Shown here: in pieces, positions 26,927 through 44,464 of the stretch
Layout: every line of letters begins with the position of its first letter
Numbering within the stretch: position 1 is the stretch's first letter
Virus record (IMG/VR): IMGVR_UViG_2571042862_000006
Coordinates: 1 to 44,464 of that record
DNA: 44,464 bases
Direction: 5' to 3' (one strand)
Source of the DNA: a virus
Lineage: Duplodnaviria > Heunggongvirae > Uroviricota > Caudoviricetes
Notes under the pieces: model-generated
Told to the model about the DNA's origin: nothing
The model's input: only the letters and a program-made list of their open reading frames with translations
Database searches by the model: none
Made by a program: the position numbers and the translations under genes

Positions 26927-28378
26927 TCAGAATCCTCCTTTCTTCTTGGACTGCGGTTCCTCGCGTTCACGTCGGCGCATTTCAGCAGACTGTTGGTCTG
27001 TGTCATAAATAGCGCCATTTGCCTGAATGCAATACACCGTGCCGGTATTGCCATGACGATTGAGACGAAGGATCAGTTCGGTTTCACCAGGTGGAACACT
27101 GTCATCAAAAGCGCCTTCACGATGGATCCCAACCCAATAATCGCAATCCTGTTCAATCTGCCCTGTATCTCGTGAGTCACTTGGTAATGGGCGTTTATTG
27201 GTTCGGCTTTCCAGTGCGCGGTTAAGCTGTGTCAGAAGCACAACAACGCAATCAAGCTCTTTGGCAAGGTTCTTCAGTCCTTTGGTGATCATGCCGTAAG
27301 CAAGGTCGTTGCGATCGGCCTTCTCAGCGGTCATTAGTGTCAGGTAATCGACCAGAATCATGCCAACACATCCTTTTTCTCGCTTGATTCGACGGCTTTC
27401 GCTGACGATTTGAGCCAGAGATAATCCCGGCGTGTCGTCGATGTAAAGCATGTCGATTTCACTCAAGCGATTAGCTGTTTCGATCGCCCTGTTGAAGTCA
27501 CCATCGTAATCACCCTGATAGCCGTCATCAGCGTCATTTGTCGCCGGAAGGTAAAAAATATTCGGGTTAACACCTGACTTCTGTCCTACCAGTTTTTCCA
27601 GTATCTGGTCACCGGGCATTTCAAGGCTGAACATCAGAGCGGGCTTTTTCTCATGCACTGCGCAGTTGATTGCCATCTGGCTGTATAGCGTCGTTTTCCC
27701 CATCTTAGGGCGAGCGCCAATGACAAACAGAGAGCCTTTCACCAGACCTTTCGGTGACAGCATCCTGTCCAGCGATGGGATCCCTGTGCTCATTCCTCGT
27801 TGTTCGCCTGACGGGTCAAATCGCTTCTCAAGGTCGCTAACCCAGTCTTCCATGACCTCACCAAATGAGCGAAGGCCGCGACGCGATCCGGTTTTTGCAT
27901 GGTCTGTCAGTTGCGTGAAAATCGCCTGAATAGCTTCGTACTTCTGCGTTGCAGTCATTCCGTTGCGGGAATAGAGCAATTCCGTCGCTTCAGTCATGCG
28001 GTTGATGGCGTAGCGTTCCATTGCGGTTTCACGAACCTGCATTGCATAGGCAACGATGTTTGCTGCGCTTGGCGTGTTCTTTGCGATCTCAGCGATATAA
28101 GCAAAACCGCCAACAGACACCGTTAACGATTTACGCTCCAGTTCATCGAAAAGCGTCAGGCCATCTACTGGCTTTTGCTCACGGTGCATTCTGGTTATTT
28201 CTTCGAAAATGATTTTGTGTGGTCGGCTGTAAAATGAATCAGGCTTCAGCATCGCCAGGACTTTCTGGACGCGCTCACTGCTGTCATCATCCAGAAGCAA
28301 TCCACCAATCACCGCCTGCTCTGCCTCGATGCTATGGGGCGGCGCATAAAAATTATCGGTCATCGTGTTCACCCTCAC
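26927..28378 (-). CDS. Replicative DNA helicase, DnaB-like (P22 gene 12 analogue)
   Basis: DnaB N-terminal block PPHSIEAEQAVIGGLLLD; Walker A GARPKMGKTT; 483 aa. Confidence 0.85.
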   Translation of the reverse strand: MRVNTMTDNFYAPPHSIEAEQAVIGGLLLDDDSSERVQKVLAMLKPDSFYSRPHKIIFEEITRMHREQKPVDGLTLFDELERKSLTVSVGGFAYIAEIAKNTPSAANIVAYAMQVRETAMERYAINRMTEATELLYSRNGMTATQKYEAIQAIFTQLTDHAKTGSRRGLRSFGEVMEDWVSDLEKRFDPSGEQRGMSTGIPSLDRMLSPKGLVKGSLFVIGARPKMGKTTLYSQMAINCAVHEKKPALMFSLEMPGDQILEKLVGQKSGVNPNIFYLPATNDADDGYQGDYDGDFNRAIETANRLSEIDMLYIDDTPGLSLAQIVSESRRIKREKGCVGMILVDYLTLMTAEKADRNDLAYGMITKGLKNLAKELDCVVVLLTQLNRALESRTNKRPLPSDSRDTGQIEQDCDYWVGIHREGAFDDSVPPGETELILRLNRHGNTGTVYCIQANGAIYDTDQQSAEMRRREREEPQSKKKGGF

Positions 28379-30164: not shown

Positions 30165-30812
30165 ATGAAAACGATGCATGAAATTATCGGGGAAAGGATA
30201 AAGTCCCTTAGAGAAGCTAAAGGACTTAGCCAGGCTCAATTGGCCAAGCTTTGCGGCTGGGCTGCGCCTTCACGCCTGGGGAACTACGAGTTAGGAACAA
30301 GAAAGGTTAGCGCGGATGACGCGCTGGTTCTTGGGGCGGCACTCGGCGTATCTCCGGCAAAAATAATGTTTGGCGAGGATTCAGACGCCGTATTTCGCCA
30401 ATATGAATACCCGTTATTTTCTTCAGTGCAGGCCGGGCCATTTTCGGAGGTGGGAAGCTACACAGCCAGCGATGCAAAGGCATGGGTCCCAACGACCACA
30501 AAAGCCAGCGAAAAAGCTTTCTGGCTTGAGGTGAAGGGGCATTCAATGACGGCGCCTCAGGGGGTTCGTCCAAGTTTTCCGGAAGGCATGCTGATACTCG
30601 TTGATCCGGCTGAGCCGGTAGAGTCTGGGGATTTCTGCGTGGCTTCTGCAAATGGTGATTCAGAGGCAACGTTCAAGAAGTATGAGAAGGATGCAGGGGT
30701 TAGTTACCTGGTACCTTTAAACCCGGCATATAGAACCCTGGATTGCGACCATAGCTGCCGCATCATAGGCAAGGTAGTTAAGGCGCAGTGGCCTGAAGAG
30801 ACGTTTGGCTGA
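30165..30812 (+). CDS. cI: CI-type repressor (HTH plus S24 LexA-like autopeptidase domain)
   Basis: C-terminal domain resembles the P22 C2 repressor ([13 protein letters not shown]...EGMLILVDP...ATFKKY); N-terminal HTH; true start may be the second ATG at 30174. Confidence 0.85.
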
Positions 30813-38247: not shown

Positions 38248-39035
38248 CCACTTTAACCGACAAAGAACTGATTAAAGAAATCAAAGAGCGCATAGGCAGC
38301 TTGGACGTTCGAGACAATATTGAGCGCCGTGCTTATGAAATTGCACTGGCATCGCTGGAAGCAGAGCCGATAGGTTTCCGTTGCAGGCGCAATGATAACC
38401 TTGGTGACTGGAGTTACGTATATCATCGAGAGCCAGATGATTTTGAGCGCAAACATTTAGTGATAGAGGGCATTTACGCCTCCCCTCCAGCGCCAGTAGT
38501 ACCGGAAGAAAAACCAATGCCTAATCCTCTTAGCATGTACGCGGTTGATGCTGTTGCCGCTATTGCAGAGGTGAGAGGCTGGAACGCCTGCCGCGCTGCC
38601 ATGCTTCATAGTGCCGAACCTGCAAGTAATCATGAAGAGTTGCCGCTTGATTATCTCCAAGGTCAAAAAGATGGTCTTGAATGGGCTGCGCAGCTTGCAG
38701 AAGCAAATCACCCACAAACTGGCGACTGGCTTTACGATGACCCGCTGGAGCTGGCTAAAGCTATCAGAAAAGGTCCTGACATGCCCGAATTCGATGGACC
38801 AACTCCGGTGACTCCGGATAGTTGGATAAGCTGTAGTGATCGAATGCCGGAAGACACCAAAATGTTACTGGCATTTAGTCAAGGTCAAATAGTGGCAGCA
38901 TATTGGAACTGGGTAGTGAGTCCAATTGATTACAAAAAATACAGAGCTTTCACATATTTATCAGGCAATATCTTGGATGACGTAACCCACTGGATGCCAC
39001 TACCGGAACCGCCGCAGGAGGCTGACAATGGCTAA
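38244..39035 (+). CDS. DUF551-domain protein
   Basis: C-terminal block WISCSDRMPE...VTHWMPLPEPP matches the DUF551 signature. Confidence 0.65.
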   Translation: MTTLTDKELIKEIKERIGSLDVRDNIERRAYEIALASLEAEPIGFRCRRNDNLGDWSYVYHREPDDFERKHLVIEGIYASPPAPVVPEEKPMPNPLSMYAVDAVAAIAEVRGWNACRAAMLHSAEPASNHEELPLDYLQGQKDGLEWAAQLAEANHPQTGDWLYDDPLELAKAIRKGPDMPEFDGPTPVTPDSWISCSDRMPEDTKMLLAFSQGQIVAAYWNWVVSPIDYKKYRAFTYLSGNILDDVTHWMPLPEPPQEADNG

Positions 39036-39312
39036 TCTGCAACTGGCAGTGAACGGCGAATACTTCGACCAGATGAAGCGGGGCGAGAAAACGGAAGAGT
39101 ATCGCCTGTGTAATGACTACTGGAATAAGCGAATTATGTTCCGGGAGTATGACCGCCTGATTATCACAAAGGGATATCCGAAGCGCGACGATTCCAGTCG
39201 CAGAATTGATGTTCCGTATGGTGGATATGAAATCAAGACAATCATACATCCACACTTCGGTGATAAACCGGTAAAGGTGTTCGCGATAAAGGTGAATATC
39301 GGCAATGAATAA
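39028..39312 (+). CDS. Small ASCH-like protein
   Basis: 94-aa ORF; GEKTEEYR and later blocks resemble ASCH/DUF3850-type proteins. Confidence 0.45.
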   Translation: MANLQLAVNGEYFDQMKRGEKTEEYRLCNDYWNKRIMFREYDRLIITKGYPKRDDSSRRIDVPYGGYEIKTIIHPHFGDKPVKVFAIKVNIGNE

Positions 39313-39384
39313 CATCCTCGCACTCGCGGGGATTTCTTTTATCTGAACTCGCTACGGCGGGTTTTGTTTTATGGAGATGATAAA

Positions 39385-39552
39385 TGCACTTCCGAGTCAC
39401 TGGTGAATGGAATGGAGAGCCATTCGACAGGGTTATCGAAGCAGAGGACATCAACGACTGCTATAACCACTGGATGATATGGGCGCAGATAGCGCATGCA
39501 GACGTAACCAATATTCGAATTGAAGAACTGAAAGAACACCAAGACGCCTGAT
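39385..39552 (+). CDS. Small ORF, 55 aa
   Basis: Hand-translated (MHFRVTGEWNGEPFDRVIE...); followed by a weak hairpin plus T-run. Confidence 0.3.
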
Positions 39553-39608
39553 GGCGGTTTTTTATTGCCTGATTTGCAGGTTCGATTCCCTATTCGGAGA
39601 TAGCACTC

Positions 39609-39809
39609 ATGCAACACGAACTACAGCCTGATTCACTGGTTGATTTGAAATTCATCATGGCCGATACTGGCTTTGGTAAAACCTTCATCTATGACCGGAT
39701 TAAGTCCGGCGACCTTCCTAAAGCCAAAGTTATCCACGGACGAGCAAGATGGTTATATCGTGACCATTGTGAATTTAAAAATAAGCTCTTAAGCCGCGCC
39801 AATGGGTAA
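39609..39809 (+). CDS. torI: Excisionase / recombination directionality factor, TorI-type
   Basis: 66-aa winged-helix protein (...FIMADTGFGKTFIYDRIKSGDLPKAKVIHGRARWLYRD...) at the prophage right end; resemblance to KplE1 TorI is from memory. Confidence 0.75.
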   Translation: MQHELQPDSLVDLKFIMADTGFGKTFIYDRIKSGDLPKAKVIHGRARWLYRDHCEFKNKLLSRANG

Positions 39810-39881
39810 AATAGCGGGTAAAATATTTCTCACATCTAAAAAACACCATTCCAATCAATCCCCTGCCGCTTCAAGTAGATG

Positions 39882-39897
39882 TCTGCAGGGGACACCA
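39882..39897. other. attR core: 16-bp copy of the 3' end of tRNA-Arg argW (CTGCAGGGGACACCAT)
   Basis: Exact match to the remembered argW 3' end / KplE1 att core, 70 bp after the excisionase and 165 bp before the second integrase. Confidence 0.6.
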
Positions 39898-40061
39898 TCC
39901 CGCTGTACACCAACGTCTACCATTGTCTATAAATCCCATGTAAACATATAAAAATAAAGAGATTTTATTCTCATGACGTCCATTTCCGTCTATTGAAATC
40001 AAGTAAATCTATGGGGCATAATTAGGGGCATTGCTGGTTCGATTGTATATGTGCCCCCAAC

Positions 40062-41348
40062 ATGTCCAGAAATACCCTCAACAAATTAACAGACCGTCAG
40101 TGCAAAGCAGCTAAGCCACGAGACAAAACTTATAAATTGTCTGATGGTGGTGGTCTTTATCTTGAAGTATCCCAGACCGGGTCGAAGTATTGGCGAATGA
40201 AGTATCGCCGCCCATCAGATAAGAAAGAAGACAGACTTGCTTTTGGTGTATATCCAACCATTAGCTTACAAGACGCCAGAGAAAAACGAGACAACGCCAA
40301 AAAGTTGTTAGTCAAGGGGATAGATCCCAAAGCAGAGCAAAGAGCAGCAAAAGCAGAAGAAAAAGGCGCATTCACTTTTGAGACAATAGGACGTCAATGG
40401 GTTGAAAGCCACCAGATGTGGAACGAAGACCACCGAAAACGCGTACTTAGAAGCCTTGAAATGTATATTTTCCCTCACATTGGCACTTCGGATATTCGCA
40501 AACTGGAGGCGATGACAATTTTACCTTTGTTTAAGAAGGTAGATGACGCCGGGAAACACGATACAGCCAACCGACTTAAACAACGAGTTAAGGACATCAT
40601 ACATAGCGCCCGTCTGAGCGGCATTAAGACAGAAATCATCACGAATGATCTCGATGTCCGGTTAATGCAATATGAAACTAAGCATCATGCCGCACTACAT
40701 CCCAGAGATTTACCAGACTTTTTCACTCGATTGGGCAGCTTTAAAGGTAATCCTCTTACCCGCCTTGCCATTGAGCTAACCATGTTGACATTTGTTCGTT
40801 CAAGCGAGTTAAGGTTTGCCCGTTGGAAAGAGTTTGACCTTGATCGGGCTGAGTGGATTATCCCTAAAAAAAGAGAGCCTATCGATGGTGTGAGGTTTTC
40901 CACCCGTGGCACAAAAACGGGAAAAGACGAACATATCGTGCTTCTTAGCCGTCAGGCTGTTTCTATTGTAAAGCAGTTGAGAGAACTAAGCGGAAGCTAC
41001 GATGTTGTGTTTCCGAATGAAAGAAACACCAAAGGCGTGATGAGTGAAAACACGGTAAACAAGGCATTACGCTTAATGGGCTATAACACGCAAGAGGACG
41101 TAACTGGACATGGATTCCGTGCCACAGCCTGTAGTTCCCTGATGGAGTCCGGTTTGTGGCAGGAGGACGCAGTAGAGCGCCAGATGAGCCACAAAGAATA
41201 TAAAGACGTTAAAAGAGCCTACAAGCACAAGGCTGATTACTTAGAAGAGCGCAAACTAATGCTTCAATGGTGGGCAGATTATCTGGACGCCAATCGAGAA
41301 ATACATATAAGCCCTTACGAGTTCGGAAGGAGAACACGCCGTGACTAA
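40062..41348 (+). CDS. Tyrosine integrase, P4-like family (second integrase)
   Basis: 428 aa; N-terminal arm-binding region (LTDRQCKAAKPRDKTYKLSDGGGLYLEV) and catalytic region (HGFRATACS...MLQWWADYLD); clearly distinct from the integrase at 1..1158. Confidence 0.9.
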   Translation: MSRNTLNKLTDRQCKAAKPRDKTYKLSDGGGLYLEVSQTGSKYWRMKYRRPSDKKEDRLAFGVYPTISLQDAREKRDNAKKLLVKGIDPKAEQRAAKAEEKGAFTFETIGRQWVESHQMWNEDHRKRVLRSLEMYIFPHIGTSDIRKLEAMTILPLFKKVDDAGKHDTANRLKQRVKDIIHSARLSGIKTEIITNDLDVRLMQYETKHHAALHPRDLPDFFTRLGSFKGNPLTRLAIELTMLTFVRSSELRFARWKEFDLDRAEWIIPKKREPIDGVRFSTRGTKTGKDEHIVLLSRQAVSIVKQLRELSGSYDVVFPNERNTKGVMSENTVNKALRLMGYNTQEDVTGHGFRATACSSLMESGLWQEDAVERQMSHKEYKDVKRAYKHKADYLEERKLMLQWWADYLDANREIHISPYEFGRRTRRD

Positions 41349-41349
41349 G

Positions 41350-42096
41350 ATGACAGGACTAGATGCGTTTTATAACGAGTCAGAAGATAAAATCTGGTTT
41401 GGTAATCTGATCAGCGAACTGGCAAGACTAAACAATGAAAATGAAAGAATGATCGCTGCCGCTATCTTAAGTAACTACAGATTGAGCAAAGCTAAACCAG
41501 ATACTTTAGGGGGGCTGGGCTTTTATCAGTTCGATTGGGTATCAGGTTTTACAACTAATGACGACTTTGAAAAGCAGTGTGTGGAGTTTTTAGGTCTTCT
41601 GGCTATGGGGCATGAATACAGGGAGAGCCCGATACCGGGGGAAGAAGGGACTTTCAACGTTAGGAAAGGGGAAGACTTTTTATATCACGATGATGAGGAT
41701 GATTGGTATGGGTCTTACGATTCGTTTTATTTCAAGCGCTCCGAGGTTGTGAACTTCTTCCCAGAACTGGATATGAATGTTCCAGATAACGAACCAGAAA
41801 TTGGAGCACTGTCAAAAAAAGTAGAAAGAGAACAAAACTGGAGAGGAAAAGATACGGCTTTAAAGATGATCGCCGGAATGGCGATTGCCTTATTTGAATC
41901 AAGCAAAGATTTCCATAGTGGAGGAAACCTTAGTATCAATAGGGTTAGTGCCCAAGTAATAGAAAACAACATAATATTCGGGAACGATGAAGACAGCGAT
42001 ACCCACCCAGATACATTTCGGAGATTGCTAACGAACGCTTTGGATAAGTACGCCCCCAAATTTAAGAAAAAAGCAACCAAAAAGCGTCCAAAATAA
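41350..42096 (+). CDS. Hypothetical acidic protein in AT-rich DNA
   Basis: About 249-aa ORF beginning immediately after the integrase stop; no family recognised. Confidence 0.5.
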   Translation: MTGLDAFYNESEDKIWFGNLISELARLNNENERMIAAAILSNYRLSKAKPDTLGGLGFYQFDWVSGFTTNDDFEKQCVEFLGLLAMGHEYRESPIPGEEGTFNVRKGEDFLYHDDEDDWYGSYDSFYFKRSEVVNFFPELDMNVPDNEPEIGALSKKVEREQNWRGKDTALKMIAGMAIALFESSKDFHSGGNLSINRVSAQVIENNIIFGNDEDSDTHPDTFRRLLTNALDKYAPKFKKKATKKRPK

Positions 42097-42252
42097 AGGA
42101 AGGATGTTCCCAAATTGTGCGTTAGAACTAAAAAATAACGCCCAATTTGGGGTAATTCTATTCCCAAAAATTTTTTCTCCAAATTCACAGAAAACTTAAA
42201 AAAACAATGATTTACTATCTCACATAGTCAAGCAACGTATTACGAGGTAGAT

Positions 42253-42444
42253 ATGAAAAAGTCGCTGATTCGGCTATCTGAGGTTTTGAAACGCACTGGC
42301 TATAGCAAGGCGTGGGTATATGCTCTGATGAGCCGAGGACAATTCCCCCAATCAGTCAAGATTGGTGCTCGCGCAATAGCTTTTATTGAAAGCGAGATCG
42401 ATGACTGGATCGATCAACGTATAGCCGAATCGCGTAGTAACTAA
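42253..42444 (+). CDS. alpA: AlpA-family transcriptional regulator
   Basis: 63-aa HTH protein (LIRLSEVLKRTGYSKAWVYALMSRGQFPQSVKIGARAIAFIESEIDDWI) matching the AlpA consensus. Confidence 0.75.
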   Translation: MKKSLIRLSEVLKRTGYSKAWVYALMSRGQFPQSVKIGARAIAFIESEIDDWIDQRIAESRSN

Positions 42445-42492
42445 AGAACAGAAACAAACAGGATACAAACAATACGTTATTAGGTATTAAGA

Positions 42493-42684
42493 ATGCAGTT
42501 GAAACCTACCAATCAAAAGCTGAACGTAACCCATGTTGATTTTGAAACCTTCGCGGCACTGATTAGATCAGAGCCACAAAAGGTGAGCACCAGCACCTGG
42601 GTTTATGATGTGAAATCCACCAGCGGTGGAAAAGCTATCGGCATTGCCTCTGGCGATGATTACTTAGTAATAGATCTGATTTAA
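42493..42684 (+). CDS. Hypothetical protein, 63 aa
   Basis: ORF only. Confidence 0.35.
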   Translation: MQLKPTNQKLNVTHVDFETFAALIRSEPQKVSTSTWVYDVKSTSGGKAIGIASGDDYLVIDLI

Positions 42685-42765
42685 TCGCACAAAAATTGTA
42701 GAGTAATTTGGGGAGACAGGAAGTCTCCTCCATATTACATTTTGGTACAACAGTAAGGGAATAAA

Positions 42766-42960
42766 ATGATTAATTACCTGACCGCTAAAGACGCAGCAGA
42801 ATATCTTGGCGTCTGTCTGTCACGCTTCTATCAGTTAAAGCGATATATCCGAAGCTTTCCTCCCTATATAAATCAGACCATCAATGGACGCAAGCGCCGG
42901 GTGTGGCTTGCCTCCAGCCTTGATCAATTTGCCGACAGATTTCTGGGGGGACGAAAATGA
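42766..42960 (+). CDS. Small HTH DNA-binding protein
   Basis: LTAKDAAEYLGVCLSRFYQLKR resembles an HTH_17/excisionase-type helix-turn-helix. Confidence 0.5.
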   Translation: MINYLTAKDAAEYLGVCLSRFYQLKRYIRSFPPYINQTINGRKRRVWLASSLDQFADRFLGGRK

Positions 42961-43343
42961 GCACTCTTACACGCTCTCAGGTCGCCGCGAATATACGCGA
43001 TATCCTACTAAGTGGCAGGAAGCTTACCCCAAAAGAGTTTGACGACATATTAAGGAAAGCCGGAAATCACGAACGTAGTCGCGTTTTAACGCTGTTACGC
43101 AACGATTGGGGAATTCCTGTTGAGCAGTTTAAAACAGAGGCGTATCACGTCACAGAACGCAATTTAGAAGCATACCACAGCGATAAAGACGAAACATTGA
43201 AGATCTGGAGGACGAACGCCAGATATGTAAAGACATTGCGTAAGGTAAACATAACGTTGTCGTTGTTGCGTGGGCTGGTGGGTAAAGTGCCTGAAGACAC
43301 GCTTAGAACTGTTTACAAGGGTATTGAAACCAAATACCTGTGA
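42957..43343 (+). CDS. Hypothetical protein, 128 aa
   Basis: ORF with ATGA overlap to the upstream gene. Confidence 0.45.
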   Translation: MSTLTRSQVAANIRDILLSGRKLTPKEFDDILRKAGNHERSRVLTLLRNDWGIPVEQFKTEAYHVTERNLEAYHSDKDETLKIWRTNARYVKTLRKVNITLSLLRGLVGKVPEDTLRTVYKGIETKYL

Positions 43344-43411
43344 TTGACAAAGCAGAAAGCCGACTTTGCGAGAGTCGGCTTTGAAGCAATTGAAATATAT
43401 GAACTTTACAC

Positions 43412-44464
43412 ATGGAATTATACGATAAAGACGCGAGTCTATCCACAAAATCACAAGCCGTAATCAATCACATCAATGGTCGCACATTAGCTTATGTGAG
43501 ATCAGTTACGCACAAACGTAATGAATTAAAGGCGGAGAATAAACGCCAATCATCAAAGGCTAACCACTGCATACCACCAGCTTGGACAAAGAAGAAATGG
43601 CGTACAATGAGGCGAGCTTTGTTTACTCTGGATGTCGAATCAACTAGTGGTATCCCCTACTCCTTTACCTTCAGACCCGTTAAGGGAACAACGCCAGAGA
43701 AATTCAACAAAGCGTTAAAGGCACTTACCAGATGGTTGACTTCGAAAGGCAATCAGTGGGTTTACGTCATGGAGTGGGCTCAACACCAGTCAGAGCCGCA
43801 TGTACACGCAATAATTATGGTGAACGAAAGAAGCATTAATGGGCAAGCAGGCAAAATTGTCAGCAAATGGGTAACACTGGCAAACAATGCAATCCCATCA
43901 AATGTTCCTCCCCAGTGGGATCTAGATTTGAAAGGTCAGCAATATTCAGAGCCTACAAGGTGTATAGGTAAACAGATTGATTACATGGCAAAACCCGAAA
44001 CTAAGTTAAATGACTTTAATAGAGAGGCGAGCAAGAGCCTATATGATTGGTCAGATGCCAACGTTTGGGGTTATTCGAATGGCTGGGCGCGGCATGAGAT
44101 AAAAAAAGAAACACTTTCTATCACTGGCTTTCATGCTGTAAGACGCATACTAAAAGCCATTCAGGCATCAAGGAAAGACAACTACAAAGTTAAGCGACAG
44201 ATACAGCGTACATTGAAACGACAAGACATAAATCGCTCACCAATCACCCCGTTCCAAGCACCGTTAATTAGCAAACACGATTGGGATTTATCAGTGATAG
44301 CGGTCACCAAAGAGGCAGAGACAGAGCGCAGGGAGTTACTATCCTCACAGACAATAAACTCGAACAAAGTACAAACCCACCCGCTGTTAAGGATGTTAAG
44401 AAAAGCACGAGTGAGAGCATCCAGAGCCAGAAGAGAAAGCGGAGGTTATGACCATTACTACTAG
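43412..44464 (+). CDS. Candidate rolling-circle replication initiator (HUH endonuclease superfamily)
   Basis: HUH-like motif (EPHVHAIIMV) and downstream Tyr motif (IDYMAKPETK); basic C-terminal tail; ORF ends at the last base of the window. Confidence 0.5.
   Translation: MELYDKDASLSTKSQAVINHINGRTLAYVRSVTHKRNELKAENKRQSSKANHCIPPAWTKKKWRTMRRALFTLDVESTSGIPYSFTFRPVKGTTPEKFNKALKALTRWLTSKGNQWVYVMEWAQHQSEPHVHAIIMVNERSINGQAGKIVSKWVTLANNAIPSNVPPQWDLDLKGQQYSEPTRCIGKQIDYMAKPETKLNDFNREASKSLYDWSDANVWGYSNGWARHEIKKETLSITGFHAVRRILKAIQASRKDNYKVKRQIQRTLKRQDINRSPITPFQAPLISKHDWDLSVIAVTKEAETERRELLSSQTINSNKVQTHPLLRMLRKARVRASRARRESGGYDHYY

Follow-up and report, generated by a model that had tools for sequence, protein, structure and literature searches.

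Gene Organization of the Prophage and the Adjoining Island

The window, by which we mean the whole 44,464-nucleotide stretch of the IMG/VR virus record IMGVR_UViG_2571042862_000006 that was analyzed, carries a full-length P22-like prophage of about 40 kb, whose structural and lysis genes are on the minus strand and whose early-left genes are on the plus strand, followed by the start of a second integrative island. It begins at the ATG of the prophage integrase gene intS (1..1158, plus strand), which stands at the attL end, with attL itself and the tRNA gene argW lying just outside. The 385-residue product displays the Pfam domains Arm-DNA-bind_3, Phage_int_M and Phage_integrase and is identical to the HK620 Int at 379 of 385 residues (98%); in Escherichia coli strain 7/2, the homologous gene is annotated as intS and has a tRNA-Arg gene 161 nt before it. 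Toward the other end of the prophage, the recombination cassette is preceded by the last early-left ORF (39384..39551, plus strand; 55 aa), which is common to lambdoid phages with other int/xis modules. A terminator-like hairpin with a T-run (CGCC-TGAT-GGCG; 39545..39563, plus strand), identified by eye and absent from the scan listing, has a stem of 4 bp here and of 5 bp (CCGCC/GGCGG) in most relatives. Further downstream are a Shine-Dalgarno GGAG (39596..39599, plus strand), likewise assigned by eye and conserved in the lineage alignment described below, and torI (39609..39809, plus strand). The latter codes for a 66-aa recombination directionality factor (RDF; excisionase) that is identical to TorI of E. 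coli K-12, and torI is its annotation in every E. coli genome carrying the identical region.

The second island (39899..44464, plus strand), recognized by its Pfam domains, is 100% identical to strain 7/2 over this stretch. It encodes a P4-like integrase (40062..41348, plus strand) with the same domain set as IntS and 32% identity to it, an AlpA-family RDF (42253..42444, plus strand; Pfam), a rolling-circle Rep-like protein (43412..44464, plus strand; Pfam) and small HTH proteins. The complete island can be followed in strain 7/2 (continuing at L002 1665..11972), where it spans 10.3 kb and is closed by a 22-nt repeat of the argW 3′ end, TCGATTCCTGCAGGGGACACCA; beyond this repeat come the csc genes, then a dsdX remnant, then dsdA. 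Two large hypothetical genes and a gene for a serine recombinase also belong to the island in that strain. At least 80% of a query spanning the junction was covered in 25 of 5426 complete E. coli genomes. The prophage and the island with the P4-like integrase, which has made use of the same argW 3′ end, are therefore in tandem at argW, with a core that is common to both. The argW-dsdCXA locus, called hypervariable in the Kapi1 paper (citing Moritz and Welch 2006), has the same tandem plan, in which each element is flanked by copies of the argW 3′ end and csc and dsd genes come next. At the left junction of the island, the P arm of the phage replaces the T-loop part of the 22-nt repeat, which may hinder independent excision of the island.

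The att Core and attR in argW

The 16-bp sequence CTGCAGGGGACACCAT occurs as a single exact copy in the window, at 39883..39898 on the plus strand, and consists of argW positions 61-75 plus a T. It is the prophage's attR and, at the same time, the left junction of the island that follows. The preliminary description gave this core correctly but placed it one base too far to the left, at 39882..39897. As the argW reference, we used the annotated tRNA-Arg gene of E. coli strain 7/2 (L001 3947..4021), a strain with an identical attR region, and the argW sequence used in that description agrees with it. Alignment to this reference, which the same description had proposed as a check, yields 15 nt of identity at the core (CTGCAGGGGACACCA, 39883..39897, plus strand; argW positions 61-75) and 16 nt at a T-arm copy before torI (TTGCAGGTTCGATTCC; argW positions 46-61), and no other exact argW match anywhere in the window is as long as these two. 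Together they tile the final 30 nt of argW; they lie on the same strand 293 nt apart and have torI between them. In shuffles of the window, the longest argW match is usually 10-12 nt, reaching 15 nt in 1 of 200 shuffles and 16 nt in 0 of 200; both matches are well beyond chance. The 30 nt in two pieces are all that represents argW here: ARAGORN finds no tRNA in 39000-40200 and Rfam gives no tRNA match at the region. Elsewhere in the window, ARAGORN reports an 83-nt tRNA-Ala(CGC) at 30363..30445, inside a 215-aa ORF (30165..30812), which is probably a false positive.

The same 16-bp duplicated core has been published for the KplE1/HK620/Sf6 recombination module (PMC2951348), and in the HK620 and Sf6 records these 16 nt are annotated as the attP core, situated between the torI homolog and int. 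Homology to sequenced phages (vB_EcoP-683R2, HF4s, N7, Kapi1, Sf6, HK620 and others) runs to 39897/39898 and then stops, and in genomes with an identical junction, argW and intS sit at the opposite end of the prophage. The Kapi1 paper describes the same site as duplicated (17 bp) at both prophage ends, proposes it as the att site and places int and xis at opposite ends. The reading of the core as attR in the preliminary description holds on all these points, and we assign 39883..39898 as the attR of a P22-like prophage in argW, a gene for tRNA-Arg(CCU). Strand exchange would take place within these 16 bp. With the final 15 nt of argW repeated in the core, integration leaves the tRNA gene intact; attP lies between torI and intS, and therefore after integration intS is found at attL and torI at attR.

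A functional attR has been defined in vitro as P arm plus core, and its left primer, CTCTTAAGCCGCGCCAATGG, matches 39786..39805, so that the corresponding region here is 39786..39898 on the plus strand; a 135-bp attR is sufficient for excision in vitro (PMC3509656). Inside attR are two direct repeats of GGGTAAAAT (39804..39812 and 39816..39824), which are kept in all genera compared and resemble the arm-type sites of IntS, for which the KplE1 literature gives a common TAAA motif. Excision and integration at the core have been demonstrated for KplE1 (PMC2951348, PMC3509656).

The closest known module is that of KplE1 (CPS-53), HK620, Sf6 and Kapi1, which shares with the present one the core, an identical TorI, a 98% identical integrase, the position of attP between the RDF gene and int, the GGGTAAAA arm-type repeats and a torI leader with the box described in the next section. 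KplE1 differs in being a 10-kb remnant, whereas the prophage here is full-length at about 40 kb, and in having an attR that abuts dsdC, whereas the attR here abuts the second island. The arrangement of attR, core, torI and intS is already known biology for Sf6/HK620/KplE1-type phages. These parts being textbook for the phage group, the locus adds one member to it and an example of a tandem island at a known hot spot.

A T-arm Box in the torI Leader

The second argW match, TTGCAGGTTCGATTCC, occupies 39574..39589 on the plus strand. The preliminary description had noted a 14-nt match to the argW T-arm, GCAGGTTCGATTCC, at 39576..39589; it is present there exactly, and the identity extends to 16 nt. 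Overlapping this T-arm copy is a 14-nt stretch, CAGGTTCGATTCCC (39577..39590, plus strand), that is conserved among related modules and that we refer to as the box. The T-arm copy comprises the 5′ stem strand, the T-loop and two bases of the 3′ strand, and the box sits between the terminator-like hairpin, which lies directly before it, and the ribosome-binding site of torI. The torI leaders of K-12 KplE1, HK620, Sf6 and CUS-3 all read …TT(G/A)CCTGATTTGCAGGTTCGATTCCCTATTCGGAGATAGCACTC-ATG. Two further copies of TGCAGGTTCG are found on the minus strand, at 28032..28041 and 38615..38625 (with TTGCAGGTTCG at 38615), both in coding regions; the expectation for a given 10-mer in a window of this size is about 0.09 copies.

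Lambdoid phages with other int/xis modules have the ORF and the hairpin with its T-run in common with the prophage and diverge before the box. Homology to mEp332, ev099 and APC_JM3.2 ends just past the 55-aa ORF and the T-run, and different xis genes follow. The succession of 55-aa ORF, hairpin and T-run is a mosaic joint, beyond which come a lambda-type pI cII site with xis (mEp332, ev099), an AlpA-type gene (APC_JM3.2) or the box with torI. The position of this joint (39552..39575 in comparison with L008, L009 and L010) agrees with the "boundary sequence" bsq2 annotated in Sf6.

Conservation of the Box across Enterobacterial Genera

TorI loci were gathered from species-representative genomes, IMG/VR contigs and assemblies; the homolog search reached relatives of at least about 60% identity only, and all those with checked context lie on an argW-type core. 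The motif CAGGTTCGATTyCC is kept in 17 lineages with TorI proteins 70-100% identical, distributed over at least eight genera, among them Escherichia, Enterobacter, Citrobacter, Serratia, Pantoea, Edwardsiella and Hafnia, with further members on unassigned contigs. In 16 of the 17 lineages, 25-28 nt separate the start of TTCGATT from the torI ATG, the exception being the Serratia lineage with 34 nt, and GTTCGATT is invariant in a 16-lineage alignment. A hairpin with a T-run stands upstream of the box in many lineages; conservation among box-bearing lineages extends neither to the upstream flank nor to the spacer before GGAG nor to the genes upstream. Several lineages have tandem copies of the box, 16 nt apart in L133, L134 and L136 and 13 nt apart in L130 and L015, which resemble arrays of binding sites. 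On this comparative evidence, the box is not a chance match but a conserved part of the torI cassette. It is absent, with arm-type repeats and core kept, from Dryocola (L019), Tatumella (L021), Rouxiella (L022), Cronobacter (L171-173), Mixta (L174-175) and some Pantoea; because several TorI modules are thus without the box, we regard it as accessory and non-essential to the module.

The Serratia and Pantoea versions resemble the T-arm into the 3′ stem (…GGTTCGATTCCTG), and that of Edwardsiella lies within a perfect hairpin, GACAGG-TTCGATTC-CCTGTC. These versions point to a derivation of the box from a tRNA T-arm. A separate T-loop copy is found in most genera at the core itself, where the attP arm directly to its left reads TTCGATGT(A)TGCAGGGGACACCA, with three changes.

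A Putative Operator of torI and Competing Explanations

We tentatively propose that the box is a functional, T-arm-derived operator bound by TorI or IntS and controlling torI, a reading that we favor while stopping short of calling it probable; the composite picture of an Sf6/HK620/KplE1-type attR, a tandem island and a box acting as a putative torI operator we place just on the probable side. Among the options that the preliminary description had raised for the second argW fragment, excisionase regulation fits best, given the fixed distance before the torI start and the TorI pentamer inside the box. As a protein-binding operator, the box would tune the expression of torI. The likeliest binder would be TorI, whose recognition pentamer GTTCG is in the box (39580..39584), giving feedback on the factor that decides excision. 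A second candidate would be IntS, which must recognize the same T-arm sequence beside the core in attB.

The TorI sites in attL, I1-I5, were defined by GTTCG, GATCG or GTCCG (Panis et al., PMC2951348), and changing I1-I5 to CAAGC abolished TorI repression of the intS promoter PintS (PMC2951348). We located these sites in sequence, with I1 and I2 17 nt apart from start to start and I3-I5 10 nt apart. L131 and L175, the two divergent modules from which a full P′ arm was recovered, retain the same five-site arrangement of GTTCG in that arm, and L141 retains it in part. In the box, the pentamer is preceded by AG/GG, as in I4 (TGGTTCG), and the 13-16-nt spacing of the tandem boxes is similar to that of I1 and I2. 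The box is unlike I1-I5 in its place on the opposite arm, directly before torI and some 300 nt away from the core, and in having ATTyCC rather than C after the pentamer. The authors of the KplE1 work concluded that the control of excision must act on how the RDF gene is expressed and left the mechanism to be worked out.

Several observations weigh against binding by TorI in particular. The pentamer is weak by itself, occurring 78 times in the window (40 and 38 copies on the two strands, about as expected and hence without enrichment), and T-loop copies contain GTTCG automatically. The box reads GGTTCGATT where the attL sites read AGTTCGC, so that the two are unlike outside the pentamer, and the argW T-loop, with the same sequence, is not among the five published TorI sites. 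An operator of whatever kind must also be reconciled with the several TorI modules that have no box and with the lack of a recognizable promoter for it to act on; a bound protein would need to function as a roadblock or have some other target. A sigma-70 promoter for torI at the box was considered and discarded, the scan being negative and no usable hexamer pair being visible by eye in any lineage. A PNAS study of 2013 is said to deal with Rho control of torI, and a JBC study of 2007 reportedly with site mapping. Should the operator reading hold, torI, the decider of excision, gains a concrete control element that can be mutated.

The strongest competitor is that the box is a functionless relic of an ancestral attP, in which about 30 contiguous nt of argW were split by insertion of the torI cassette or by another rearrangement. 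The pieces do tile argW 46-61 and 61-75 exactly, and the extension into the 3′ T-stem in Serratia and Pantoea, together with the full hairpin of Edwardsiella, suggests a tRNA origin. We nevertheless hold it to be unlikely, since other genera keep the diverged T-loop copy (TTCGATGT-ATGCAGGGGACACCA) next to the core, which speaks for two copies rather than for one that was split; for the same reason, a split ancestral core was dropped as the main reading. Moreover, GTTCGATT is invariant despite unrelated flanks, spacers and upstream genes and TorI at 70-85% identity, and the fixed distance to the ATG and the tandem copies are at odds with a neutral relic, which should have decayed. The relic option of the preliminary description is thus possible as an account of the origin of the box and fails to explain its conservation across genera. 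An origin in a tRNA and a present function are compatible.

That the box acts as RNA within the 5′ leader of torI, whether through a T-loop-like module or through an anti-Shine-Dalgarno hairpin that limits translation, appears decidedly improbable. In most lineages, the UUCC in the box is complementary to the GGAG that lies 6-9 nt downstream; UUCCUG and CAGGAG could pair in Serratia, and in Edwardsiella, GACAGG/CCUGUC forms a perfect T-arm-like hairpin. Against this, RNAalifold returns zero consensus pairs over the 16 lineages, the E. coli leader folds no better than its shuffles (z = −0.67) with a broken T-stem of 2 bp only, Rfam has no match, and the GGTTCGA part of the box is left unexplained by anti-Shine-Dalgarno pairing.

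A further possibility is suggested by the annotations of HK620 and Sf6, in which the box would be part of a cII-activated pI promoter for integration, with a TTGC-N-TTGC repeat overlapping the −35 element. The HK620 record labels a "promoter, phage integration" and a "cII protein" binding site over TTGCCTGATTTGC, the Sf6 record has "pI; possible integrase expression promoter", and lambda-type modules have a true pI cII site, TTGCGTGTAATTGC, in the corresponding position behind the same ORF and terminator. The likeness to the lambda pI/cII site at the start of xis extends to the map position, after the last early-left ORF and its terminator and at the RDF gene's 5′ end, and to the TTGC repeat in the E. 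coli versions. The repeat is, however, mis-spaced (N5 here, not N6) and unconserved: its first half is TTAC in K-12 and many E. coli prophages, and the Edwardsiella, Hafnia, Serratia and Pantoea lineages keep the box with no TTGC repeats, which are missing from most box-bearing lineages. What is conserved is the T-arm box, downstream of the repeat. The promoter scan is negative at the box, a promoter at this place would express the excision factor during integration, and intS has its own mapped promoter in attL (PMC2951348). We therefore rate this explanation as very improbable.

That the box is part of a recombination site, be it an arm-type site of IntS in attR/attP or the att core as annotated in CUS-3, could draw on the 16-nt direct repeat that it makes with the T-arm of argW at attL and on the CUS-3 annotation, yet it is scarcely credible, as HK620 and Sf6 carry torI, core and int contiguously in their records, which places the exchange at CTGCAGGGGACACCAT, and as the 135-bp attR that is proficient in vitro is without the box, which lies 197 nt outside its left end (PMC3509656) and 294 nt from the core and has no TAAA of the GGGTAAAA kind. 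The arm-type option of the preliminary description falls on two of these points, the missing TAAA and the sufficiency for in vitro excision of an attR starting at 39786.

T-loop-like Boxes before P4-like Integrase Genes

A comparable element precedes the integrase gene of the second island. Its control region (40013..40057, plus strand), delineated by eye, has two direct repeats of GGGGCAT (40013..40019 and 40025..40031), a copy of GGTTCGATT (40036..40044) and the inverted repeat GTGCCCC (40051..40057), with the ATG at 40062; 40013..40064 as a whole reads GGGGCAT-N5-GGGGCAT-TGCT-GGTTCGATT-GTATAT-GTGCCCC-CAAC-ATG. The same layout before P4-like int genes, namely two direct repeats, (G/A)GTTCGAT, an inverted copy of the repeat and the ATG, recurs downstream of att cores in L013, L021, L034, L040, L041, L025, L170 and L173. 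The repeats differ between islands (e.g., GATGGTAT, GTATAAC, GGGGGC, CGGGTAT and GAGGGTAT), and the central (G/A)GTTCGAT, or GTTCAAT/GTTCGAA, is kept. In K-12, intB at leuX has this layout (L169, about 318..379) and intA at ssrA does not. Many of the P4-like int genes with such a layout have no visible Shine-Dalgarno sequence.

Homology between TorI and the AlpA protein of the island is detectable (E = 2e-7 from one two-sequence BLASTP comparison). Together with the recurrent layout, this suggests, without showing, that the GTTCGAT boxes are a shared operator type of IntS and P4-like modules and candidate operators for the RDF or for Int. The tRNA T-loop sequence GGTTCGAT is near-universal. 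One could extend the proposal to a wider rule, speculative and in our view rather improbable, by which the wHTH RDFs of the TorI/AlpA type, or the core-binding domains of the integrases, recognize the T-loop GGTTCGAT, with copies of it serving as operators before recombination genes. Were it true, one and the same protein-DNA recognition would underlie both the regulatory circuit and the selection of tRNA genes as targets.

Re-reading of Database Annotations

The box accounts for two conflicting annotations, the "att core" of CUS-3 and the "pI promoter with cII site" of HK620 and Sf6, the latter resting on an unconserved repeat. In the CUS-3 record (CP000711.1), TTGCAGGTTCGATTCC is labeled "attL core" and "attR core" (L003 1693..1708 and L004 1..16), and the record ends there. 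A K1 strain whose prophage right end is 100% identical to CUS-3 has torI, the true core and dsdC directly after this supposed end (L167 2190..2520). It appears from this comparison that the CUS-3 record was cut at the wrong direct repeat and omits torI and the true core. In the CUS-3-like prophage of E. coli IHE3034 (L167 2503..2517), the attR core is one G short (CTGCAGGGACACCAT); excision may suffer from this loss, which may also explain why the other 16-nt repeat came to be labeled as the core.
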